Below are positions 845 through 49,366 of a DNA stretch of 64,000 bases, piece by piece. The DNA comes from a virus (lineage: Duplodnaviria; Heunggongvirae; Uroviricota; Caudoviricetes), in IMG/VR virus record IMGVR_UViG_2713896909_000009, positions 1-64,000 of that record; one strand, 5' to 3'. The notes beneath the pieces are model-generated. The model saw nothing but the letters and a program-made list of their open reading frames with translations. It had not been told where the DNA came from and did no database searches. Numbering within the stretch: position 1 is the first letter of the stretch; the number at the start of each line of letters is the position of its first letter. A program made the position numbers and the translations under genes.

Positions 845-1546
845 TCACTCCACTACAAACCAGTCACATGCCAGCAGGTCACCTACAGAAGGCATCCATG
901 GAACAACTACACCTTGTGCATTTTTCAAAACGAAATGCGCACCATAAGGAGCAAGAGGAGAGTCGAAATTGATTTCAAGCTCTCCGTTTGCGGCATGTTT
1001 TATAGGGGTTAGTCTTGAAGCACCCTGTTTGTCAGGAACCAGCCAGCAGAATTGGTTTTCGCCGTTCCACCCGCGTCGAGCAACTTTCTTGCCATCCTTC
1101 AGCCACATCAGCGCGTCAGAAAAGTCGGCTGCTTCAAGGTCGATTTCTTCTTGCTGGGTGGTGATGCCACCAGCAGAAATAGTTACGCTCCCGGTAAGAT
1201 TAATCATCACGCCGTTGTCATCCGTAATGATGACCGTGGTTCCATTTTCGGAGGCGTCGTTAACCAGGCCGTAGCGTTCCTCAAATGGTTTCTCCGGGGC
1301 ATAGAACAGATAACCGTTTTCATAAACGATCAGATACCCGCCAGTTTTTGGTCGGTGTTTTTGTAAAAACATTGCGTCAACACAAACTGTTGCCCCTTTT
1401 GGTTCAACGAGTTCGATGCAGCCCCAAAGTGGGGCATCAGTTACTCCGAAAATAACAACATTTTTAATTTTCGATGCACTAACGTTTTTGTGAGCTTTGT
1501 ATTTGGGAAGGAACTTAAAAAGCTCTTTCGTTGTCATGTTATTCAT
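845..1546 (-). CDS. hypothetical protein with C-terminal DUF2829 (Tad2-like) region
   Basis: 233-aa ORF; C-terminal 'ALMWLKDGKKVARRGWNGENQFCWL' resembles the DUF2829 signature. Confidence 0.4.
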   Translation of the reverse strand: MNNMTTKELFKFLPKYKAHKNVSASKIKNVVIFGVTDAPLWGCIELVEPKGATVCVDAMFLQKHRPKTGGYLIVYENGYLFYAPEKPFEERYGLVNDASENGTTVIITDDNGVMINLTGSVTISAGGITTQQEEIDLEAADFSDALMWLKDGKKVARRGWNGENQFCWLVPDKQGASRLTPIKHAANGELEINFDSPLAPYGAHFVLKNAQGVVVPWMPSVGDLLACDWFVVE

Positions 1547-2959: not shown

Positions 2960-3203
2960 ACTCCGGCAGCTCCGCCGACTTTCGACAATGAAGTTATCGC
3001 TGGCGGCGATAGTTTTTGACTCGATTTTCATGGCGGTATATGTGCTCATTGAGACGTGGCCACTGGAACCGCTATTGTATGCCGGGCTTCGGCTGTGCCT
3101 GACATTTTTGAGCATGGCTGCAAGATTGATGCAGCAGAAAGAAACCGCTTCAGATTGCCCACGTCGCGCGGTGCGCAAATATATGGCACGCAGGCGAAGA
3201 TGA
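2952..3203 (+). CDS. small two-TM membrane protein (holin-like), overlaps the lyz stop
   Basis: 83 aa; two hydrophobic helices and a basic C-terminus 'RRAVRKYMARRRR'. Confidence 0.4.
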   Translation: MNKLRQLRRLSTMKLSLAAIVFDSIFMAVYVLIETWPLEPLLYAGLRLCLTFLSMAARLMQQKETASDCPRRAVRKYMARRRR

Positions 3204-3213
3204 TTTAACCATC

Positions 3214-3247
3214 ATTGCTCTAATAAATTTGATTTATTAGAGCAAAT
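3214..3247. promoter_or_regulatory. bipartite C1 operator (two overlapping 17-mers in inverted orientation)
   Basis: 'attgctctaataaatttgatttattagagcaaat': a perfect ATTGCTCTAATAAATTT plus an inverted partner. Confidence 0.7.
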
Positions 3248-3546
3248 AACCTACCATCGAACACGGCTCTATTGATCTCATCGTCGTTCAGGCTTATAGT
3301 TCCACCGTCGTAGCAAATTCTGCGACCAGGTTTGACAGCCTGAATACGAATGCGGACAACCGCAGATTTCCGATATTGCGGTATTTTTGTGTCCGTAAAC
3401 CACGTTACGCCCGAATTATGGTGGGGCGTGATGGGGAGGCTTCGGCCTGCTGGTTTCATTCGTGCCAGTCTGTCAACCCTGTCACGTCCTGCCACCTGTT
3501 TGACAGCGGGTCGCAGGTTGTTAAACCTACGAATGAGGCCGTAACT

Positions 3547-3768
3547 ATGGTTAATGCCAATCCTTGCGCACGCCCTGAATTTATCTGGCGCTTTTACTCC
3601 TGCCAGAAACGTCACTATCACTTAGTAATTGCACCGACAGAAGATGAGGCCCGCTCTCAGCTTCCTGACGCTCCCTGCATTTTCTCTGCCCGCTTTTCCA
3701 CTGATTCGCGCAACTCTCTCAGTTACTGGTGCCTCCCTGTTAACGCTTCTGCTCAGGAGGGGCTATGA
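3547..3768 (+). CDS. small ORF translationally coupled to the antirepressor-like gene (icd-like position)
   Basis: 73 aa 'MVNANPCARPEFIWRFYSCQKRHYH...'; stop overlaps the next ATG (ATGA); conserved in all three cassettes. Confidence 0.5.
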   Translation: MVNANPCARPEFIWRFYSCQKRHYHLVIAPTEDEARSQLPDAPCIFSARFSTDSRNSLSYWCLPVNASAQEGL

Positions 3769-4856
3769 GAACGTCATTAGTCACCCGTGAAGAAATGATT
3801 GAGGCAATTGAACAGCACACATCCTGTATCAGTACCAGGGATATACCGGGTGTTATTGCCAACTACTTCATGATCACCAAACAACTTTACCGGAGAAAGG
3901 ACAAGAACGCGGTTCACCGCATTCTGTTGTCTGATATCCGTGAATACCTGCTCGAACAGGGTCGTCTTGATTATGCAACCGTAACCGCCGAAGCACGCAA
4001 GGAGGCACACAGGATGAAAGCAACTAATGTTAAATCAGAAAAAATTACCCTGCCTTCAGTTCAGGAATCCGAGCTGGTGGTTGTTCAGAATCAGTCTGAT
4101 GAAATTCCCGTTCTGGAATGGCTGGGAGTGCGTGTCGTAACGACCGAAACTCTTGCTAGAGGGTATGGTACCGATGAAGCCAATATTCGTAAAAATTTGT
4201 CTCGCAACTCCGATCGCTTTGAAGAAGGCAAGCATTACTATCTCTTAACCGGTTCAAAGTTAAAGGAATTTAAAAGGCTAGTGACTATTAGTCACTTGGT
4301 TAGCAAATATACAAGTCAGGTAATTCTCTGGACAGAGCGCGGCGCTGCACGCATGTCTAAGATCGTGGACACAAATGAAGCATGGGCATTCTTTGAAAAA
4401 CTGGAAGACAGCTACTTCCGACAAAAAGAACAGCAACCGGTCTCAATTCCCCAGACGCTTCCAGAAGCTCTGCGCCTGGCTGCCGAGTTGGCAGAACAGA
4501 AAATGCAACTGGAACAACAGCTGGTGGCCGCCGCTCCTAAAGTCGATTTTGCCGACCGGGTATCAGTAGCTAAAGGGATCCTGATTGGGAATTTTGCAAA
4601 GGTTGTTGGACTTAAGCAAAACGCGCTGTTTGCCTGGTTACGGGAGAACGGCATCCTGATTGCGTCCGGCGGACGTAAAAATGTACCGTTTCAGCAGTAC
4701 ATAAATGCCGGGTATTTCACGGTGAAAGAAGTGGTGCTGGATGATGAAGATGGCTACCAGATACGGTTGACGCCCCAGCTAACGGGGAAAGGCCAGCAGT
4801 GGCTGACGCGTAAACTGCTCGATGCAGGTTTATTAAAGCCTGTAGCGGCTGAGTGA
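3765..4856 (+). CDS. antirepressor-like protein (ORF6N/Bro-N-like central domain, KilA-C/ORF6C-like C-terminus), paralog 1
   Basis: 363 aa; 'VLEWLGVRVVTTETLARGYG' and C-terminal 'PKVDFADRVSVAKGILIGNFAKVVGLKQNALFAWLRENGILIASGGRKNVPFQQYINAGYFTVKEV'. Confidence 0.7.
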   Translation: MRTSLVTREEMIEAIEQHTSCISTRDIPGVIANYFMITKQLYRRKDKNAVHRILLSDIREYLLEQGRLDYATVTAEARKEAHRMKATNVKSEKITLPSVQESELVVVQNQSDEIPVLEWLGVRVVTTETLARGYGTDEANIRKNLSRNSDRFEEGKHYYLLTGSKLKEFKRLVTISHLVSKYTSQVILWTERGAARMSKIVDTNEAWAFFEKLEDSYFRQKEQQPVSIPQTLPEALRLAAELAEQKMQLEQQLVAAAPKVDFADRVSVAKGILIGNFAKVVGLKQNALFAWLRENGILIASGGRKNVPFQQYINAGYFTVKEVVLDDEDGYQIRLTPQLTGKGQQWLTRKLLDAGLLKPVAAE

Positions 4857-4868
4857 TTAAATTAAAAA

Positions 4869-4886
4869 GGCGGCCTTTCGGCCGCC
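4869..4886. terminator. GC hairpin terminator between the antirepressor-like gene and pro
   Basis: 'ggcggcc tttc ggccgcc' flanked by an A-run on the plus strand, so a T-run in minus sense. Confidence 0.5.
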
Positions 4887-4931
4887 AGTGATTTCAGATA
4901 CCCCGGCAGCCGCCGGGGTTATTTTTGGTGG

Positions 4932-14530: not shown

Positions 14531-14971
14531 ATGGCCACACTATCTGATACAATAAAACCGAATAAAACATATCTTGAGGCGGTACTCCGTACAGCGTTGT
14601 TAGGAAAGACAGAAGACGAATACGTTGATTTCTTCCTGTCAGGGCTACGCGGGCGATTACTGAAAAATCCCCGCTTGTACCGCAGCTATGGTCCATACTG
14701 GCCGGAAATTAAAAAATTATTACTGGAGCGCGGTTATGGTAATTTCGGTCGTCTCGTTGACCGTGACGTTCGCAAAATTTACCGTTATGACCGCCCGGCG
14801 CTAACACTCATAGCCGCGACGCTCTACAGCCAGGAGCGTTTTGATAATGGTCAGATATACTCAGCCTGGCATTTACTGCCAGTGCCTGAAGAAGTTGACG
14901 ACCAGGACTATGAGTTTGAGTCTTACGATTTGGAAGTTGAAGCCTTGGCACGGGCTGGAGAGAAAACTTGA
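14531..14971 (+). CDS. ulx: Ulx-like protein downstream of darB
   Basis: 146-aa ORF 34 nt after darB; assignment by synteny and size. Confidence 0.45.
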   Translation: MATLSDTIKPNKTYLEAVLRTALLGKTEDEYVDFFLSGLRGRLLKNPRLYRSYGPYWPEIKKLLLERGYGNFGRLVDRDVRKIYRYDRPALTLIAATLYSQERFDNGQIYSAWHLLPVPEEVDDQDYEFESYDLEVEALARAGEKT

Positions 14972-15216
14972 AAAAGCGATACTACACAGTAAAGCATGGG
15001 ACGCTACGAGCATTACAAGAGTTTGCTGACAAGCATAACGTTGAGGTGCGCAGGGAAGGGGGAAGTAAAGCTCTGCGCATGTACCGTCCTGACGGAAAAT
15101 GGCGGACGGTCGTCGATTTCAAAACTAACAGCGTTCCCCAGGGCGTCCGCGACCGGGCATTCGAAGAATGGGAGCAGATCATCATAGATAATGCATTGCT
15201 TCTGAATGCTGATTAA
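14968..15216 (+). CDS. lxc: Lxc-like small protein
   Basis: 82-aa ORF with a 4-nt overlap with the preceding gene; assignment by synteny and size. Confidence 0.45.
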   Translation: MKKRYYTVKHGTLRALQEFADKHNVEVRREGGSKALRMYRPDGKWRTVVDFKTNSVPQGVRDRAFEEWEQIIIDNALLLNAD

Positions 15217-15264
15217 TGGTTTTGTTTCCCGGTATCGTATTATACCGGGAAATATCTTTTTATA

Positions 15265-15672
15265 TTAACCCGCGGCTGCAATTAGTGCTGACCCAACCGC
15301 CAGTGTGGTGACAAGGCCTATAATGACCACTGTCGCTGTTACCCCTCCTGCAACAGCAGCTCCAGTCTTTGTTTTGGATAACTCTTTCTTTTCTAGAGAA
15401 ATGATTTCACCCATAGGAATAGACTGGTTGTTAATACCATTGATATATTGTGGGGTAACTTTCGATACTGTCATTTCACCTTCGCTACCTGATTTTAACT
15501 TGTATTTAATTAGGTCACCAGCATATATCGGCGGCTCCGTTAAATAATAGGTACTTCTTTCAAGATTTTTCTGCTGTATGTTAACTCCCTGATAAGACTG
15601 ACATCCACATAACACAAGCGATAAAATTAGCGTTGTCAGTAATTTTCTTTTGTTTTTTATCATTGCCAGCAC
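15265..15672 (-). CDS. putative lipoprotein with C-terminal glycine-zipper helix (SlyB/Pcp-like)
   Basis: N-terminal signal 'KRKLLTTLILSLVLCGCQS'; C-terminal 'GAAVAGGVTATVVIIGLVTTLAVGSALIAAAG'; AT-rich gene. Confidence 0.55.
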   Translation of the reverse strand: MLAMIKNKRKLLTTLILSLVLCGCQSYQGVNIQQKNLERSTYYLTEPPIYAGDLIKYKLKSGSEGEMTVSKVTPQYINGINNQSIPMGEIISLEKKELSKTKTGAAVAGGVTATVVIIGLVTTLAVGSALIAAAG

Positions 15673-15797
15673 TCCTTCTCCTTTTCTTTGTATAGCTAAA
15701 ACACATTATTTATTCTTGTCAAATAGTTTTGAGTTTGAGAGTGAGGTTTGCGTGACGACGCTCTAAAAGTTGCAGATAGCGGTAAAGATAATTTTAT

Positions 15798-16466
15798 TTA
15801 CAATATGTTACCTTTTCCGGTAAGTATGCCTTGCGGTACTTTACTTTCCCCCATTAGTTGAGTGGCATGAATGATATTAATAAATGACATTAGTTGTGAT
15901 GAACTCTTATTAACATTTATCTCTCCTGCCATTGCCCTAATGTAGTCGGCGCTTGCAACGTTGTTATATTCCGTTGCGAAGCAGCATAACAACGTCAGAA
16001 CGTGCTCTGTCGTTATTTCGCTCCAGTTGATGTTGAAAAATTCATCGCCTTTTTTGTCATGTTCGGAATCGAAGATGCTTTGGTGGAGGATGTATTTGCC
16101 GGATTCCTTGCGCGGTAACTTGATCGCTTTCTGGCGTTCCAATTCCTTGTAAATCTGCATTGCTTCAATCAGTACCGGCCTGCCGTTCATGAAGGGATCG
16201 CGCAACCTTACACGCTGGCCAACTCGACCGGTAATAAAGCTGTTTTCCTCTTCCACCAGCACGATAAAACCTTTTTCCTCTTTCTCACGCAATTCGCGCA
16301 GCAACTGGAGTTCCATATCGCGGCGGCGTTCAGGGTAGCTGGTCCGCTCAGCCATTATCAGCTCGTTATTGATCCATGCAGCAGTCATTGACGCCGGTTT
16401 GCCGACGCTCATCGAAACAACGCATATTTTCTTATCCATAGCGCCCCTACAAAAAAGAAAAGCCAC
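15798..16466 (-). CDS. hypothetical cytoplasmic protein, upstream partner of the lipoprotein
   Basis: 222-aa ORF (start may be the internal Met at about 16439); AT-rich; no motif recognised. Confidence 0.5.
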   Translation of the reverse strand: MAFLFCRGAMDKKICVVSMSVGKPASMTAAWINNELIMAERTSYPERRRDMELQLLRELREKEEKGFIVLVEEENSFITGRVGQRVRLRDPFMNGRPVLIEAMQIYKELERQKAIKLPRKESGKYILHQSIFDSEHDKKGDEFFNINWSEITTEHVLTLLCCFATEYNNVASADYIRAMAGEINVNKSSSQLMSFINIIHATQLMGESKVPQGILTGKGNIL

Positions 16467-16697
16467 CAGCGGCGGCTTAGCAATACAACTGAAGGTAGCG
16501 CCCGGTACTCAGACTGTGCCGTCCATGGAATATTTGAAAAGGGATCCATCCGTACCGGGCATATGATGATTCTGACTGAAGTCACTTGTCAGTTGTCAAT
16601 TATTTCAGATTAAAAATAATATATTTATTAGTGCATACAAATAAAACAATAAGTGTGCACATTGCAACCTCAGAGAGGAAACATTCAATCAGATTGA

Positions 16698-16730
16698 ATT
16701 GCTCTAATAAATTTGATTTATTGGATCAAA
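16698..16730. promoter_or_regulatory. C1 operator (perfect 17-mer plus degenerate inverted partner)
   Basis: 'attgctctaataaatttgatttattggatcaa'. Confidence 0.6.
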
Positions 16731-17031
16731 AATACTACCATTGAACGCCAGAGTATTGATCTTCCTGTTGTTCAGGCTTATAGTTCCGCCGTCGTAGCAA
16801 ATTCTGCGACCGGGTTTGACAGCCTGAATGTACATGCGGGCAACCGCAGATATCCGATATTGCGGTATTTTTGTGTCCGTAAAACCACGTTACGCCCGAA
16901 TTATGGTGGGGCGTGATGGGGAGGCTTCGGCCTGCTGGTTTCATGTACGCCAGTCTGTCAACCCCGTCACGTCCTGCCACCTGTTTGACAGCGGGTAGCA
17001 GGTTGTTAAACCTGTACATGAGGCCGTAACT

Positions 17032-17256
17032 ATGGTTAATGCCAATCCTTGCGCACGCCCTGAATTTATCTGGCGCTTTTACTCCTGCCAGAAACGCCAC
17101 TATCACTTCGTTATTGCACCGACAGAAGCTGAGGCACGTTCTCAGCTTCCTGACGCCCCCTGTATTTTCTCCGCCCGTTTTTCTACCGATTCGTCGCGCA
17201 ATTCTCTCAGTTACTGGTGCCTCCCTGTTAACGCTTCTGCTCAGGAGGGAGTATGA
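17032..17256 (+). CDS. small ORF coupled to antirepressor-like paralog 2 (icd-like position)
   Basis: 74 aa 'MVNANPCARPEFIWRFYSCQKRHYHFV...'; ATGA overlap with the next gene. Confidence 0.5.
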   Translation: MVNANPCARPEFIWRFYSCQKRHYHFVIAPTEAEARSQLPDAPCIFSARFSTDSSRNSLSYWCLPVNASAQEGV

Positions 17257-18365
17257 GAACGTCATTAGTCACCCGTGAAGAGATGATCGAGGCAATTGAA
17301 CAGCACACAACCTGTATCAGTACCAGGGATATTCCGGGCGTTATTGCCAACTACTTCATGATCACCAAACAACTTTACCGGAGAAAGGACAAGAACGCGG
17401 TTCACCGTATCCTGCTGTCTGATATCCGCGAATACCTGCTCGAACAGGGGCATCTGAATTACGCAACCGTTGCAGCCGAAACACGCAAGGAGGCACACAG
17501 AATGAAAGCTACTAACGTTAAATCCGAAAAAATTCATGCACCTTCAGTTCAGGTATCGGAGCTGGTGGTTGTTCAGAATCAGTCTGATGAAATTCCCGTT
17601 CTGGAATGGCAGGGAGTGCGTGTCGTAACGACCGAAACTCTTGCTAAGGGGTATGGAACCGAAACTAATAACATCAAAGTTAACTATACGCGTAATGCTG
17701 ATCGCTTTGAGGAAGGTAAACATTACTTTCTACTAACTGGTTCAAAATTAAGAGAATTGAAGGACAAGGTTACTCAAAGTAACTTAGTCGCACCGCGAGC
17801 AAAGCACCTCACTCTCTGGACGGAACGCGGCGCAGCCCGCCACGCTAAAATGCTCGAAACCGATCAGGCATGGGCATTCTTTGAAAAACTGGAAGACAGC
17901 TACTTCCGGCAAAAAGAACAGCAACCGGTTGCAATCCCCCAAACATTACCAGAAGCCCTACGCCTGGCTGCCGAACTGGCTGAACAAAAGCAGCTTCTGG
18001 AACAGAAAGCCCACCAGCTAAATCAGCAGCTGGTGGCCGCAGCCCCCAAAGTCGATTTTGCCGACCGGGTATCAGTAGCTAAAGGGATCCTGATTGGGAA
18101 TTTTGCAAAGGTTGTTGGACTTAAGCAAAACGCGCTGTTTGCCTGGTTACGGGAGAACGGCATCCTGATTGCGTCCGGTGGACGTAAAAATGTGCCGTTC
18201 CAGCAGTACATAAACGCCGGATATTTCACAGTGAAAGAAGTGGTGCTGGATGATGAAGATGGCTACCAGATACGGCTGACGCCCCAGCTAACTGGGAAAG
18301 GCCAACAGTGGTTGACGCGTAAACTGCTCGAAGCTGGCTTGTTAAAACCGGTGGCGGCTGAATGA
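17253..18365 (+). CDS. antirepressor-like protein, paralog 2
   Basis: 370 aa; N- and C-terminal thirds near-identical to paralog 1, central domain diverged. Confidence 0.7.
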   Translation: MRTSLVTREEMIEAIEQHTTCISTRDIPGVIANYFMITKQLYRRKDKNAVHRILLSDIREYLLEQGHLNYATVAAETRKEAHRMKATNVKSEKIHAPSVQVSELVVVQNQSDEIPVLEWQGVRVVTTETLAKGYGTETNNIKVNYTRNADRFEEGKHYFLLTGSKLRELKDKVTQSNLVAPRAKHLTLWTERGAARHAKMLETDQAWAFFEKLEDSYFRQKEQQPVAIPQTLPEALRLAAELAEQKQLLEQKAHQLNQQLVAAAPKVDFADRVSVAKGILIGNFAKVVGLKQNALFAWLRENGILIASGGRKNVPFQQYINAGYFTVKEVVLDDEDGYQIRLTPQLTGKGQQWLTRKLLEAGLLKPVAAE

Positions 18366-18371
18366 TTAAAA

Positions 18372-18392
18372 AAGGCGGCCTTTAGGCCGCCA
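18372..18392. terminator. GC hairpin terminator
   Basis: 'ggcggcc ttta ggccgcc' with adjacent A-run (T-run in minus sense). Confidence 0.5.
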
Positions 18393-18508
18393 ATGATTTC
18401 AAGAAGCAGGCAATGGCCATGTCTTCGTAGTTGACTAATGCCATCGCTTAATTATAACAATAAATTAGAACAATGGCATTTTTTATTTTTTTATCGAGAA
18501 TCACATTC

Positions 18509-18610
18509 TTTCACTTCGGCACCTGTGTGCTATACTCCTTCTTGATTGATTGGATGCGGAATACAAACCCGCTTTTTTGTGCAGCCTGGCTACTTGCCAG
18601 GCTTTTTTTT
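18509..18610 (+). ncRNA. candidate small RNA unit (promoter to intrinsic terminator)
   Basis: -35 'tttcac', 16-nt spacer, extended -10 'tgc tatact'; about 68 nt later hairpin 'agcctggc tactt gccaggct' followed by T8. Confidence 0.3.
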
Positions 18611-18920
18611 ATTTCATCATGGAAGCTGTTAACGCTTTGAACCTTGCTGAACTGATTGAAAGGACATTGTTAACCTTACCCAAGAGTTCGCCAAACTCAG
18701 ACATCACTTTAGCAAAACCGCGCCGTGCTTCTTCCTCGGTGGCATTCATCACGAAATGTTCAGCACTACGCATACTTTTGACAGGGAACGCAACAGATAT
18801 TGAGTCAATATCAGGCATTCTATCGCTCAACTTTACAGTGACAATGACGGCTGGCGACTGAATATTAGTGCTTACAGACAGCACTACATATTTTCCGTCG
18901 ATGTTGAAATCCTTTCTCAT
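18609..18920 (-). CDS. hypothetical protein at the position where P1 carries ref
   Basis: 103-aa ORF directly downstream of cre, preceded by an operator-like site; no HNH motif. Confidence 0.4.
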   Translation of the reverse strand: MRKDFNIDGKYVVLSVSTNIQSPAVIVTVKLSDRMPDIDSISVAFPVKSMRSAEHFVMNATEEEARRGFAKVMSEFGELLGKVNNVLSISSARFKALTASMMK

Positions 18921-18970: not shown

Positions 18971-20002
18971 CTAATCACCATCTTCCAGCAGGCGCACCAT
19001 TGCCCCCGTTTCACTATCCAGATTACGGATATAGTTCATGACAATATTTACGTTGGTCCAGCCACCAGCTTGCATGATCTCCGGTATTGAAACTCCGGCG
19101 CGGGCCATATCTCGCGCGGCTCCGACACGGGCACTGTGTCCAGACCAGGCCAGGTACCTCTGGCCAGAGTCATCCTTAGCCCCGTAAATCAATCGGTGAA
19201 TTGCTTCAAAAATCCCTTCCAGGGCGCGAGTTGATAGCTGGCTGGTGGATGATGGCGCGGCAACACCATTTTTTCTGACCCGGCAAAACAGGTAGTTATT
19301 CGGATCATCAGCTACACCAGAGACAGAAATCCATCGCTCGACCAGTTTAGTTACCCCCAGGCTAAGTGCCTTCTCTACACCTGCGGTGCTAACCAGCGTT
19401 TTCGTTCTGCCAATATGGATTAACATTCTCCCACCGTCAGTACGTGAGATATCTTTAACCCTGATCCTGGCAATTTCGGCTATACGTAACAGGGTGTTAT
19501 AAGCAATTCCCAGAAATGCCAGATTCCGTATATCCTGGCAGCGATCGCTATTTTCCATGAGTGAACGAACCTGGTCGAAATCAGTGCGTTCGAACGCCAA
19601 TGCCTGTTTTGCACGTTCACCGGCATCAACGTTTTCTTTTCGGATCCGTCGCATGACCAGTGAAACAGCATTGCTGTCACTTGGTCGTGGCAGCCCAGAC
19701 CGACGATGAAGCATGTTTAGCTGGCCCAAATGTTGCTGGATAGTTTTTACTGCCAGACCACGCGCCTGAAGATATAGAAGGTAATCGCGAACATCTTCAG
19801 GTTCTGCGGGAAACCATTTCCGGTTATTCAACTTGCACCATGCCGCCCACGACCGGCAAACGGACAGAAGCATTTTCCAGGTATGCTCAGAAAACGCCTG
19901 GCGATCCCTGAACATATCCATCAGGTTCTTGCGAACCTCATCACTCGTTGCATCGACCGGCAATGCAGGCAAATTTTGGTGTACGGTCATTAAATTGGAC
20001 AT
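18971..20002 (-). CDS. cre: Cre site-specific tyrosine recombinase
   Basis: 343 aa 'MSNLMTVHQNLPALPVDATSDEVRKNLMDMFRDRQAFSEHTWK...'; essentially the Cre sequence; adjacent loxP. Confidence 0.97.
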   Translation of the reverse strand: MSNLMTVHQNLPALPVDATSDEVRKNLMDMFRDRQAFSEHTWKMLLSVCRSWAAWCKLNNRKWFPAEPEDVRDYLLYLQARGLAVKTIQQHLGQLNMLHRRSGLPRPSDSNAVSLVMRRIRKENVDAGERAKQALAFERTDFDQVRSLMENSDRCQDIRNLAFLGIAYNTLLRIAEIARIRVKDISRTDGGRMLIHIGRTKTLVSTAGVEKALSLGVTKLVERWISVSGVADDPNNYLFCRVRKNGVAAPSSTSQLSTRALEGIFEAIHRLIYGAKDDSGQRYLAWSGHSARVGAARDMARAGVSIPEIMQAGGWTNVNIVMNYIRNLDSETGAMVRLLEDGD

Positions 20003-21155: not shown

Positions 21156-22007
21156 ATGATAAATTATGTCTACGGCGAACAACTGTACCAGGAGTTCGTC
21201 AGCTTCAGGGATCTCTTTCTAAAAAAAGCTGTTGCACGCGCCCAACACGTTGATACCGCCAGCGACGGTCGTCCTGTACGCCCGGTTGTCGTTCTACCGT
21301 TCAAAGAAACGGACAGCATTCAGGCTGAAATTGATAAATGGACTTTAATGGCGCGGGAACTGGAACAGTACCCAGACCTCAATATCCCAAAGACTATTTT
21401 ATATCCAGTGCCTAACATCCTTCGCGGTGTGCGCAAGGTTACAACTTATCAGACAGAAGCTGTGAACAGCGTCAACATGACCGCAGGCCGCATTATTCAT
21501 CTGATTGATAAGGACATTCGCATCCAAAAAAGCGCGGGGATCAATGAGCACAGTGCAAAATACATAGAGAACCTGGAAGCAACAAAAGAGCTAATGAGGC
21601 AGTACCCGGAGGATGAAAAATTCCGTATGCGCGTACACGGCTTTAGCGAAACAATGCTGCGCGTCCACTACATTTCCAGTAGCCCTAACTACAATGATGG
21701 TAAATCAGTTAGTTACCATGTGCCACTGTGTGGCGTGTTTATCTGCGATGAAACTCTCCGTGATGGAATTATCATCAACGGTGAATTCGAAAAAGCAAAA
21801 TTTAGCCTTTATGACTCCATAGAACCGATCATCTGCGACCGCTGGCCGCAAGCAAAAATATATCGCCTGGCAGATATTGAAAATGTAAAAAAACAAATTG
21901 CCATCACTCGCGAAGAGAAAAAGGTTAAGTCAGCCGCATCAGTTACGCGCAGCCGTAAAACCAAAAAGGGGCAGCCAGTAAACGACAACCCCGAAAGCGC
22001 GCAATAA
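21156..22007 (+). CDS. c1: C1 repressor of lytic functions
   Basis: 283 aa 'MINYVYGEQLYQEFVSFRDLFLKKAVARAQHV...'; matches P1 C1 as I recall it. Confidence 0.95.
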   Translation: MINYVYGEQLYQEFVSFRDLFLKKAVARAQHVDTASDGRPVRPVVVLPFKETDSIQAEIDKWTLMARELEQYPDLNIPKTILYPVPNILRGVRKVTTYQTEAVNSVNMTAGRIIHLIDKDIRIQKSAGINEHSAKYIENLEATKELMRQYPEDEKFRMRVHGFSETMLRVHYISSSPNYNDGKSVSYHVPLCGVFICDETLRDGIIINGEFEKAKFSLYDSIEPIICDRWPQAKIYRLADIENVKKQIAITREEKKVKSAASVTRSRKTKKGQPVNDNPESAQ

Positions 22008-22039: not shown

Positions 22040-23155
22040 TTATTCAGCCGCCACCGGTTTTAACAAGCCAGCATCAAGTAGCTTGCGAGTTAACCACTGC
22101 TGGCCTTTACCCGTTAATTGAGGCGTCAACCGTATCTGGTAGCCATCTTCATCATCCAGCACCACTTCTTTCACCGTGAAATACCCCGCGGTGATGTACT
22201 GCTGGAACGGCACATTTTTACGTCCGCCGGACGCAATCAGGATGCCGTTCTCCCGTAACCAGGCAAACAGCGCGTTTTGCTTAAGTCCAACAACCTTTGC
22301 AAAATTCCCAATCAGGATCCCTTTAGCTACTGATACCCGGTCGGCAAAATCGACCTTAGGAGCGGCGGCCACCAGCTGCTGATTTAGCTGGTGGGCTTTC
22401 TGTTCCAGAAGCTGCTTTTGTTCAGCCAGTTCGGCAGCCAGACGCAGGGCTTCTGGAAGCGTCTGGGGGATTGTGACCGGTTGCTGTTCTTTTTGTCGGA
22501 AGTAGCTGTCTTCCAGTTTTTCAAAGAATGCCCATGCCTGATCGGTTTCGAGCATTTTAGCGTGACGGGCAGCGCCGCGTTCTGTCCAGAGAGTGAGTGA
22601 GCGGGCTTTGGGTGAGACTGGATTTTGTGAGTAGTTTAAAGCTACCCGCAAATTTTTCAGCTCATCGCCAATAACCTTGAAAAAGTGCTTCCCTTCAACA
22701 AAGCGCACTTTGTTCTCATGATGATTCTGGCGAATACGGATTGTTTCTGTCCCATACCCTTTAGCAAGAGTCTCGGTTGTCACTACACGCACCCCCTGCC
22801 ACTCCAGAACGGGAATTTCATCAGGCTGATTTTGAGCAACCACCAGCTCCGATTCCTGAACTGAAGTTGCATGAATTTTTTCTGATTTAACGTTAGTTGC
22901 TTTCATTCTGTGTGCCTCCTTGCGTGCTTCGGCTGCGATGGTTGCGTAATTCAGATGCCCCTGTTCGAGCAGGTATTCGCGGATATCAGACAACAGGATA
23001 CGGTGAACCGCGTTCTTGTCCTTTCTCCGGTAAAGTTGTTTGGTGATCATGAAGTAGTTGGCAATAACGCCCGGTATATCCCTGGTACTGATACAGGCAG
23101 TGTGCTGTTCAATTGCCTCGATCATCTCTTCACGGGTGACTAATGACGTTCTCAT
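22040..23155 (-). CDS. antirepressor-like protein, paralog 3
   Basis: 371 aa; conserved N/C termini; central domain diverged ('TETIRIRQNHHENKVRFVEGKHFFKVIG'). Confidence 0.7.
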   Translation of the reverse strand: MRTSLVTREEMIEAIEQHTACISTRDIPGVIANYFMITKQLYRRKDKNAVHRILLSDIREYLLEQGHLNYATIAAEARKEAHRMKATNVKSEKIHATSVQESELVVAQNQPDEIPVLEWQGVRVVTTETLAKGYGTETIRIRQNHHENKVRFVEGKHFFKVIGDELKNLRVALNYSQNPVSPKARSLTLWTERGAARHAKMLETDQAWAFFEKLEDSYFRQKEQQPVTIPQTLPEALRLAAELAEQKQLLEQKAHQLNQQLVAAAPKVDFADRVSVAKGILIGNFAKVVGLKQNALFAWLRENGILIASGGRKNVPFQQYITAGYFTVKEVVLDDEDGYQIRLTPQLTGKGQQWLTRKLLDAGLLKPVAAE

Positions 23156-23373
23156 AGCCCCTCCTGAGCCGAAGCGTTAACAGGGAGGCACCAGTAACTG
23201 AGAGAATTGCGTGAATCAGTGGAAAAACGGGCAGAGAAAATACATGGGGCGTCAGGAAGCTGAGAGCGGGCCTCATCTTCTGTTGTTGCGATAACGAAGT
23301 GATAGTGACGTTTCTGGCAGGAGTAAAAGCGCCAGATAAATTCAGGGTGAGTTGGGGTAGGGATAGTAGCCAT
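23152..23373 (-). CDS. small ORF coupled to antirepressor-like paralog 3 (icd-like position)
   Basis: 73 aa 'MATIPTPTHPEFIWRFYSCQKRHYHFVIATTEDEARSQLPDAPCIF...'; ATGA overlap. Confidence 0.5.
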   Translation of the reverse strand: MATIPTPTHPEFIWRFYSCQKRHYHFVIATTEDEARSQLPDAPCIFSARFSTDSRNSLSYWCLPVNASAQEGL

Positions 23374-23557
23374 AATGGCAGCCTCCTTTTGCTAACTTAA
23401 GGAGCTACCGCGTGAGGTTCCAATCTCAATGGCGGTAGCACTGACTGGGTTGGAACTACCGGCGCAAAAGGGAACCGGCCTGCCTTTCGGCAGCCCAGCC
23501 AGCACTACCATTGATCTCGGAGCTATGTGCTACGTATGGCTGTGCGATGGCATGACA

Positions 23558-23579
23558 CAAAAAAAGACGCTTTTGGCGT
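23558..23579 (-). terminator. intrinsic terminator inside the cassette-3 leader
   Basis: plus strand 'aaaaaaa gacgc ttttg gcgtc'; in minus sense a hairpin followed by T7. Confidence 0.45.
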
Positions 23580-23712
23580 CTGTGTCGCCTTTTGCATTAT
23601 CCGGGGTTCCAATCCCGGCACCCGTTTTAATGAGGTGCCTGATAAGCATAAACCGAAAATGCCTCAAGGCGCAAGAGGTCAGGTTCAATGTAACATCGGT
23701 AGTCAAAAAACA

Positions 23713-23729
23713 CAATTTATTAGAGCAAG
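23713..23729. promoter_or_regulatory. C1 operator-like site abutting the pacB stop
   Basis: 'caatttattagagcaag' (reverse complement CTTGCTCTAATAAATTG). Confidence 0.55.
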
Positions 23730-46980: not shown

Positions 46981-47056
46981 TGGTGGCCCCTACCGGACTC
47001 GAACCGGTGACCGTGCGATTATGAGTCGCCAGCTCTAACCACTGAGCTAAAGGGCC
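46981..47056 (-). tRNA. tRNA-Ile2-like (anticodon CAT, ileX-type)
   Basis: 76 nt 'GGCCCTTTAGCTCAGTGGTTAGAGCTGGCGACTCATAATCGCACGGTCACCGGTTCGAGTCCGGTAGGGGCCACCA'; near-identical framework to E. coli ileX; CCA encoded. Confidence 0.8.
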
Positions 47057-47765: not shown

Positions 47766-48054
47766 TGGTTATCCCTCAATAAAAGTGACATATTTATTAG
47801 ATTGCGGTGCCGGGTGCCTCCCGGTGACGTTAACCAGTTAACAATTAACGCCGGAATGTTTAATCATCAAGGAGGATTGTTTTAACTGTTCCGCGTGCGC
47901 TTAGCCGCATTCACCACAACGGAAAGAGCATTTATGGCTCGCATCGCGGGAAAAAGCCCACGGTAGAGAGTCGAACTCTACAAATACTCTTACCTGTTGT
48001 GTGCTCCGTTTCGTGGAGCTAACGGCGGAGTAATCATCCGCCTCAAATTTATAA

Positions 48055-49290: not shown

Positions 49291-49366
49291 TGGCGATGGT
49301 GGGTGGATTCGAACCACCGACCAGTTAGTTAACAGCCAACTGCTCTAACCGCTGAGCTACACCATC
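49291..49366 (-). tRNA. tRNA-Asn (anticodon GTT)
   Basis: 76 nt 'GATGGTGTAGCTCAGCGGTTAGAGCAGTTGGCTGTTAACTAACTGGTCGGTGGTTCGAATCCACCCACCATCGCCA'; canonical cloverleaf. Confidence 0.8.

Follow-up and report, generated by a model that had tools for sequence, protein, structure and literature searches.

Introduction

In bacteriophage P1 the antisense RNA C4 is excised by RNase P from the transcript of the immI operon as a 77-nucleotide (nt) RNA, and the operon is subject to Rho-dependent polarity. The present analysis concerns a locus of the same kind, termed cassette 2 (positions 16698-18391), in the virus record IMGVR_UViG_2713896909_000009 of IMG/VR (Caudoviricetes), of which positions 1 to 64,000 are designated the window. 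Cassette 2 is read here, at a probability of roughly 85%, as an additional, intact operon of the P1/P7 immI type in a P1-like phage-plasmid, and most likely works as immI does. It is another representative of the immI family, situated at the slot of the ref gene, with a recognition code that is not described for P1 or P7 and with an Ant protein of the ORF6N type.

Two accounts that draw on Citron and Schuster (1990) and later work describe how C4 of P1 is cut out of the operon transcript and pairs at the icd ribosome-binding site, which prevents translation of icd and in turn expression of ant, and also describe the binding of Ant1 and Ant2 to C1 (PMC8198154, PMC12197685). The C4, a1b1, icd and ant1/ant2 elements are classical, and C4 and a1b1 are curated in Rfam (PMC2864571). 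Phage P7, which is heteroimmune to P1 through c4, provides the precedent for a shift in antisense specificity by matched changes in C4 and its targets (PMC12197685, PMC6906374). However, the P1 and P7 codes are alternatives carried by different phages, whereas the codes compared below reside in one genome.

Two further systems bear on the comparison. The isrK-orf45-anrP module of Gifsy-1 in Salmonella resembles cassette 2 in combining a leader RNA, a small upstream open reading frame (ORF) translationally coupled by AUGA, and an antirepressor-like protein; its short leader RNA reportedly acts in trans to switch on anrP translation (PMC4825925). In the immI region of P22 (sar and ant) an antisense RNA also blocks antirepressor translation (PMC12197685). 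In contrast to C4, which lies upstream of its target in the same transcript and works by way of two short loops, sar is an opposite-strand transcript across the ant ribosome-binding site that is unrelated to C4 in sequence and structure. Homologues of icd-ant1/2 were noted in the res-mod region (RD-1) of pSvP1, and an ant gene was noted between pacB and c1 in pTZ20_1P and RCS47, in a study that did not analyse c4 (Venturini et al., 2019; PMC6906374). A limited literature search, which is no proof of novelty, yielded nothing on paralogous cassettes that differ in antisense code within one genome.

Results

An intact immI-type operon replaces ref

The elements of cassette 2 are arranged in the order C1 operator, two putative promoters, a1/b1 leader, C4, a2/b2 across the icd ribosome-binding site, icd, ant1/ant2 and candidate terminator. 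Every annotated immI element of P1 and P7 lined up with this arrangement, from the C1 operator and the pair of promoters through a1, b1 and the 77-nt c4 to the target sites downstream of it and the start of icd (Table 1). The likeness to P1 immI comprises element order, C4 fold, the a allele, the icd-ant overlap, the internal start of Ant2 and the terminal regions of Ant, whereas the two operons differ in the b allele and in the middle of Ant, which is a P1-specific segment in P1 and ORF6N in cassette 2. The C1 operator, which overlaps the upstream promoter, aligned with those annotated as Oc4 in P1 and as Op(c4) in P7. Only two perfect copies of this operator are present in the window, one in cassette 2 and one in cassette 1.

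The first 25 kb of the window matched P1-like phage-plasmids (Punavirus) by megablast, with positions 50-20437 corresponding to P1 coordinates 22531-1 in reverse orientation at ~97% identity in five pieces. Plasmids of Escherichia albertii and E. coli were the top full-length matches. Homology with P1 ends at 16636/16637, at the edge of the Omat operator, and restarts at 18368, which is 8 nt upstream of the position of the P1 ref start codon. Thus, cassette 2 substitutes for exactly the ref ORF, and nothing else, between mat and c8/cre, which agrees with the cre-proximal location that an earlier note on this DNA had assigned to it. The immI operon of P1 lies between sim and kilA-repL, whereas cassette 2 is in the ref slot beside c8/cre, and the window holds two further operons of this kind. 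By virtue of this position, cassette 2 is a paralogue at another locus and not the canonical immI.

Cassettes 1 and 2 constitute a repeat unit of ~1.69 kb in which homology starts at the C1 operator and stops at the terminal hairpin. Cassette 1, in which the Rfam C4 and c4-a1b1 pair also is present, lies in a 1.7-kb stretch (3200-4899) without P1 counterpart between lydD/E and pro. Cassette 3, which the earlier note had not linked to the other two, sits between c1 and pacB and its C4 scored 76.7 bits in Rfam. The isrK-type leader (Rfam RF01394) had no match in cassette 2 and within the window was found only in cassette 3, where, in a further parallel with Gifsy-1, it adjoins the C4 match. In contrast to Gifsy-1, the leader of cassette 2 is of the c4-a1b1 type (RF03163) and its hairpin is weak. 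A hairpin with a U-run between a1b1 and c4 was considered as an IsrK-style leader terminator, but its fold of only -6 to -9 kcal/mol was not better than those of shuffled sequences and it is listed as a speculative candidate.

The C4 RNA of cassette 2 has its own code at site b

The Rfam model of the C4 antisense RNA (RF01695) matched cassette 2 over its full length at 70.7 bits against a gathering threshold of 45. The predicted fold has a minimum free energy (MFE) of -45.1 kcal/mol (z = -5.9) and a structure identical to that of P1 c4, with a long closing stem, a UUCG-capped hairpin, a second hairpin that bears the b' loop, and a single-stranded junction that contains a'. The conserved stem and the 3' CCACC also are present.

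The earlier note described the leaders of cassettes 1 and 2 (3248-3546 and 16731-17031, respectively) as matching almost base for base. The identity is indeed strong, but this wording is slightly generous as 268 of 301 positions agree (89%), with 91-95% identity per 100 nt from a1b1 through c4 to the icd start. The two DNA strings quoted in support each occur exactly twice: gtttgacagcctgaat at 3330 and 16814, and ggaggcttcggcctgc, which forms the internal, UUCG-capped hairpin within the C4 RNA, at 3435 and 16920. The 33 differences between the leaders are not randomly placed. Approximately 14 fall within the first 40 nt, in the promoter spacer, and a further 12 make up 4-nt blocks, one each at b1, in the c4 loop (b') and at b2, in which compensation is exact (GTACATG versus ACGAATG). 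The C4 stems of the two cassettes are identical save for one position in the 3' arm of the long stem (C versus T).

The C4 of cassette 2 displays exact 7+7 nt complementarity both to the target pair at the icd ribosome-binding site and to a1/b1. Complementarity between the 5' leader and the ribosome-binding region, for which the earlier note had proposed to look, is absent. Instead, a1b1 has the same sequence as a2b2, and the 5' leader therefore is a copy of the ribosome-binding-site target, a target mimic, and not its complement; the C4 loops are complementary to both.

The code of cassette 2 consists of b GTACATG (b' CAUGUAC) and a TTGACAG, and that of cassette 1 of b ACGAATG (b' CAUUCGU) with the same a. 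P1 combines b GTTAGTG with a TTGACAG. P7 differs from P1 at both sites (b GATTGTG, a TTAGCAG), whereas cassette 2 differs from P1 and from cassette 1 at b only. Cassette 3 has b GCAAAAGG and a TTGGAAC. The a site of the cassette 3 type varies between elements in a covarying manner, being TTGGAAC in the window and TTGAGAC in the E. albertii plasmids p06-3542 and p2RM10507.

Predicted b-loop duplexes produced a diagonal matrix in which cognate pairs (P1, P7, cassettes 1 and 2) were strong at -11 to -12 kcal/mol and non-cognate pairs were weak, with values of -4.1 to -4.5 kcal/mol between cassettes 1 and 2 and of -2.6 to -6.8 kcal/mol across all non-cognate pairs tested. Predicted a-junction duplexes were equal for cognate and non-cognate combinations of P1 and cassettes 1 and 2 (-8.4 kcal/mol). 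In the 64-kb window, the paired a..b target of each code was found only in its own cassette. Because the GTACATG code at b1, b' and b2 differs from those of cassette 1, P1 and P7, the C4 of cassette 2 should act mainly on its own mRNA and probably represses that mRNA principally. Judged from these sequences, the antisense RNA looks private at b and common with cassette 1 only at a.

The earlier note inferred that the leader encodes a shared antisense regulator. An antisense regulator is present, namely C4, which is preceded by the c4-a1b1 motif, but its description as shared is not supported, as the b sites differ with matched changes. It is quite unlikely that the near-identical leaders feed one common antisense RNA pool by which cassettes 1 and 2 are co-regulated, with only the effector differing. 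The 89-95% identity of the leaders, the C4 stems that are alike save for one position, the common site a (TTGACAG/CUGUCAA) and the equal a-junction duplexes speak for such a pool. However, the 4-nt b block differs with matching changes in b1, b' and b2, and the b-loop duplex drops from about -11/-12 to -4.1/-4.5 kcal/mol between the two cassettes. Of the differing sites, it is b2 that overlies the ribosome-binding site. Moreover, no same-family pair of co-resident cassettes had the same full code (0/21), and co-resident pairs that were alike at one site differed at the other.

Matched changes recur across related loci

When IMG/VR was scanned with patterns for both C4 scaffolds, 111 loci, and then at least 118, were recovered with the P1-type scaffold and 70 with that of the cassette 3 type; counts of cassettes per contig are lower bounds. 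The flanks of 216 C4 copies were surveyed among the matches listed, and 204 of these had complete flanks. Exact complements of both loops were located upstream as well as downstream in 203 of the 204, so that all four cognate sites were accounted for. Among the matches listed, 16 codes were distinguished in total: the P1-type family combined seven b alleles and two a alleles in 12 of 14 possible ways, and the cassette 3-type family combined two alleles at each site in all four ways.

The 37 distinct leaders were compared at each position of the pairing. All 518 cells were Watson-Crick paired for C4:a1b1, and again for C4:a2b2. In both interactions double-sided changes were evident in 8 of 14 pairs and one-sided changes in none (0/14). 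Control pairings that were slid out of register were 26-51% paired, and none of 500 shuffles reached the observed covariation score. The remainder of the leader was at least 90% conserved outside the code sites.

As a1, b1, b', a', a2 and b2 are interleaved, no single exchange yields a new combination. The near-complete matrix of b and a alleles, taken together with this interleaving, thus points to repeated selection for matched sets. A chimeric cassette with an ACGAATG-type b' and a P1-type b2 emerged in a fuzzy-regex pass, was not reproduced by exact matching and was dropped.

Icd and Ant proteins

The icd and ant1 genes of cassette 2 are intact and overlap by ATGA, and the Ant2 start is conserved together with its Shine-Dalgarno sequence. 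Ant1 matched phrog_63 ('anti-repressor Ant') across residues 1-370 (1e-134), as well as PF10543 (1.3e-20) and PF03374 (KilAC; 3.9e-32) in Pfam, and is 58% identical to P1 Ant1. It closely resembles P1 and P7 Ant1 over the N-terminal 95 and the C-terminal ~150 residues, the Ant2 start included. The middle region of P1 Ant1 gave neither an ORF6N nor another hit in Pfam. A sequence search of the Protein Data Bank with Ant found no solved structure of a relative.

The ant genes of cassettes 1 and 2 are 87-99% identical at their ends and 65-68% identical over the middle (17684-17883). The encoded proteins correspondingly are nearly identical at the ends and diverge mainly at residues ~135-200. Both peptides that the earlier note had quoted for a differing central domain were located in the two Ant proteins, and its broader picture of a conserved regulatory RNA coupled with a variable effector domain was borne out, as the C4 module is kept and the Ant middle domain varies.

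By analogy with P1, C1 probably is still the target of the cassette 2 Ant, even with ORF6N as its middle domain. The RNA switch could operate as described for P1 while the Ant paralogue, with its ORF6N and KilAC domains, either hits another repressor, such as that of a co-resident lambdoid prophage or satellite, or binds DNA, in which case the cassette would be a cross-induction or anti-competitor module. The ORF6N middle is not of the P1 type and is the variable part among the three paralogues, the same c4-icd leader drives an unrelated 235-residue protein in non-P1 contexts, and the related Gifsy-1 module activates antQ transcription (PMC4825925). Set against this are the terminal regions shared with P1 and P7 Ant1, and the perfect C1 operator that ties cassette 2 to the C1 circuit. 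Overall, a target other than C1 is unlikely, but it deserves more weight than the common antisense pool considered above.

Occupancy of the site and stacking of cassettes in other plasmids

At least 56 plasmids in PLSDB have a cassette at the mat-c8 site with both junctions present. Among the IMG/VR matches listed, this site held the codes GTACATG with either a allele, ACGAATG, GTTAGTG and GATTGTG, together with several variants of the Ant middle domain, and thus code, effector and site are reshuffled. The E. albertii plasmid p2RM10507 bears the same Ant variant as cassette 2 with the code ACGAATG instead. The closest plasmid, E. albertii p06-3542 (NZ_CP034163.1; 95.7 kb, P1-like, 98% identity), contains five C4 genes with five different codes, at the canonical immI, lyz-pro, mat-c8 and c1-pacB sites and upstream of ban. 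The last of these sites, in the ban/dnaB region, is empty in the window.

It is very unlikely, more so than any other alternative considered here, that cassette 2 is a decaying or neutral duplicate that arose by recombination between P1-like elements and serves no function itself. In favour of this reading, the region is already known as a recombination hotspot (RD-1 of PMC6906374) and damaged homologues exist, such as the truncated icd in p06-3542; several icd or ant genes were short or missing in the survey, partly where loci end. However, the operator, putative promoters, C4, both targets, icd, ant1/ant2 and candidate terminator of cassette 2 all are intact, the three-way compensation at b needs selection for pairing, and the mat-c8 cassette recurs in the plasmids noted above with several codes and Ant variants.

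A query that joined c4 and icd to the 5' portion of ant matched 1051 places in 687 plasmids. Two or more cassette places were present in ~45% of an evenly spaced sample of 60 of the matching plasmids. Among co-resident pairs of the same family, none of 21 had an identical full code where shuffling expects 2.45 (P ~0.05), a test that is marginal only and is without control for site-specific history. Among the matches listed, pairs with one site in common always differed at the other. The evidence on the stacking of different codes within a genome is suggestive only.

Among the matches listed, a pair of co-resident cassettes had identical codes (GCAAAAGG/TTGAGAC) in one case only, on IMG/VR contig 3300045988_157941 (L148, L165). 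The contig is metagenomic, the cassettes are of the cassette 3 type and have no identical 200-mers between the two loci, and one copy is 95 nt from the contig end so that an assembly artefact is possible. Neighbourhood labels that placed kilA downstream of cassettes were unreliable, as the kilA DNA marker also picks up the KilAC portion of ant, with hits that lie only 946 nt downstream of c4; for this reason, an occurrence of the GTACATG code at the canonical immI is not claimed.

The same c4-icd leader also precedes an unrelated protein of 235 amino acids (aa) in 16 IMG/VR loci among the matches listed (cluster M1). This protein is not Ant-like in the region that was compared, and the neighbourhoods of these loci are without P1 markers. 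The arrangement suggests that the RNA switch is used as a portable module for other effectors.

Features of cassette 2 and its surroundings

The coordinates of cassette 2, of its two paralogues and of neighbouring genes are collected in Table 1.

Table 1. Elements of cassette 2, paralogous cassettes and adjacent genes in the window.
Feature	Position	Strand	Remarks
C1 repressor operator (Oc4/Op51 homologue), ATTGCTCTAATAAATTT	16698..16714	+	Exact 17/17 match to P1 C1 operator consensus
P2c4 (P51a)-like promoter, TTGATT-17-TACCAT	16713..16741	+	Overlaps operator; alignment to annotated P2c4 of P1
P1c4 (P51b)-like promoter, TTGATC-17-TATAGT	16756..16784	+	Consensus scan; aligns with annotated P1c4 of P1
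c4-a1b1 leader motif (Rfam RF03163)	16778..16830	+	56.8 bits, gathering 46.7; upstream of C4
a1 target mimic, TTGACAG	16816..16822	+	Aligns with annotated a1 of P1; complementary to a' in all 37 distinct sequences
b1 target mimic, GTACATG	16830..16836	+	Cassette-specific code; 6/7 b1:b' pairs with compensatory double changes, 100% of cells paired
Hairpin and U-run between a1b1 and c4	16844..16876	+	Speculative IsrK-like leader terminator, read from the sequence
C4 antisense RNA	16905..16981	+	77 nt by homology to P1 c4; Rfam match 16899-16984
b', CAUGUAC	16942..16948	+	In 9-nt hairpin loop of C4; unpaired in MFE structure; complementary to b1 and b2
a', CUGUCAA	16955..16961	+	In single-stranded C4 junction; same allele as P1 and cassette 1
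a2 target, TTGACAG	16985..16991	+	In icd-ant mRNA; aligns with annotated downstream C4 target of P1; covaries with a'
b2 target, GTACATG	17014..17023	+	Overlaps icd Shine-Dalgarno GAGG (17020-17023); complementary to C4 loop b'
icd, 74 aa	17032..17256	+	Stop overlaps ant start (ATGA); phrog_1426, E 1e-44; homologues annotated Icd-like
ant1, 370 aa	17253..18365	+	P1-Ant1-like N-terminus; ORF6N middle (aa 116-200, nt 17598-17852); KilAC/ANT C-terminus (aa 258-360)
ant2	17502..18365	+	In-frame internal start Met84 after AAGGAGG; Met aligns with Ant2 start annotated in P1 and P7
GC-rich hairpin, GGCGGCCTAAAGGCCGCC	18374..18391	.	Two-way terminator candidate; -16 kcal/mol, z = -3.6
Cassette 1, paralogue	3214..4880	+	Operator, a1b1, C4 (3414-3499), icd, ant
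Cassette 3, paralogue, second leader family	22040..23729	-	Operator, isrK-type leader (23560-23638), C4 (23428-23515), icd, ant
lxc	14968-15216		Neighbour on mat side of cassette 2
mat homologue	15798-16466	-
c8	18609-18920	-
cre	18971-20002	-	Followed by loxP
c1	21156-22007		Followed by pacB

The promoter (18451-18479) and C1 operator (~18459-18475) of the lost ref gene are kept and now are directed at the 3' end of ant. The terminal hairpin scored as a terminator on the minus strand and also is kept at the end of cassette 1. As a good minus-strand terminator, it may insulate cassette 2 from antisense transcription driven by the retained ref promoter. In cassette 1 (window 3214-3246) an inverted operator-like half with 14/17 matches directly follows the perfect copy, forming a near-palindrome that is like a bivalent operator, whereas cassette 2 has a single operator only.

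Elsewhere in the window, the mod-IS5-res block of P1 (~6.4 kb) is absent and is replaced by ~700 bp (15217-15921) that contain a single ORF of 135 aa (15265-15672, minus strand) with no Pfam match. A 233-aa ORF (845-1546, minus strand), in which Pfam detects a domain like Tad2 (Thoeris anti-defence 2; E 2.6e-21), falls in a gap in P1 homology (835-1542). The region that matches the P1 tRNA/ban area includes two tRNA genes (46984-47056 and 49294-49366, minus strand) and an STnc100 match (47803-47918, minus strand) that barely passes at 47.3 bits against an Rfam threshold of 47.

Discussion

Cassette 2 most likely operates as immI does. Transcription would start at two promoters, the upstream of which is overlapped by the perfect C1 operator, and the transcript would run from the a1/b1 target mimic through the 77-nt C4 RNA and the a2/b2 target to icd and then to ant1/ant2, which are coupled to it in translation. 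Mature C4 would pair with b2 by its hairpin loop (b') and with a2 by its junction (a'), and occlude the icd Shine-Dalgarno sequence. As ant translation is expected to depend on that of icd, a C4 block of icd would silence the antirepressor. When the cognate C4 is absent, for example on entry into a cell whose resident prophage lacks the code, Icd and Ant would be made and Ant would be expected to inactivate the C1 repressor. The a1b1 segment may act as a competitor for C4, by analogy with IsrK. The steps of processing, translational repression and coupling, and of Ant binding to C1, are transferred to cassette 2 from P1.

Several observations weigh against this interpretation. Cassette 2 is not followed by kilA-repL as the canonical immI is. 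The predicted P2c4-like promoter, which was placed by alignment alone, has a weak -10 element (TACCAT). As site a is identical in cassettes 1 and 2, some cross-repression between the two may take place. The middle of Ant is ORF6N, a different domain from that in P1 Ant1, which makes the binding of C1 by this Ant an assumption. Finally, the icd gene of the mat-c8 cassette in p06-3542 is truncated to 44 codons, from which it follows that the module can decay.

On its own, cassette 2 is textbook P1 biology in a new place and with a new code. The natural variation among its relatives constitutes a clean three-way covariation test, which supports the pairing of C4 with its a2b2 target as well as with the a1b1 mimic. 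The more interesting part is the stacking of cassettes with distinct codes, from which a wider superinfection immunity is hypothesized. Three cassettes are present in the window and up to five in p06-3542, and among the matches listed co-resident cassettes carry different codes in almost every case. It is tentatively proposed, at somewhat less than even odds, that P1-like phage-plasmids stack several c4-icd-ant operons, each with its own two-part antisense code, in a combinatorial immunity arms race.

If this is true, a resident would remain repressed only with a cognate C4 against each of the Ant cassettes that an incoming relative brings, whereas an invader would need just one cassette with a code that is missing in the resident. 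Given this asymmetry, the gain of a cassette would improve both defence and attack, and the classical heteroimmunity of P1 and P7 would become a multi-locus, combinatorial immunity type. The 16 natural orthogonal loop-target codes on one conserved scaffold also are a toolkit for orthogonal translational repressors. For P1-like plasmids, which are very common in E. coli, E. albertii and Salmonella, superinfection immunity may rest on a set of orthogonal RNA codes and not on one immI type. As P1-like plasmids often carry resistance genes, combinatorial immunity of this kind, if true, would bear on which of these plasmids coexist, displace or induce one another.

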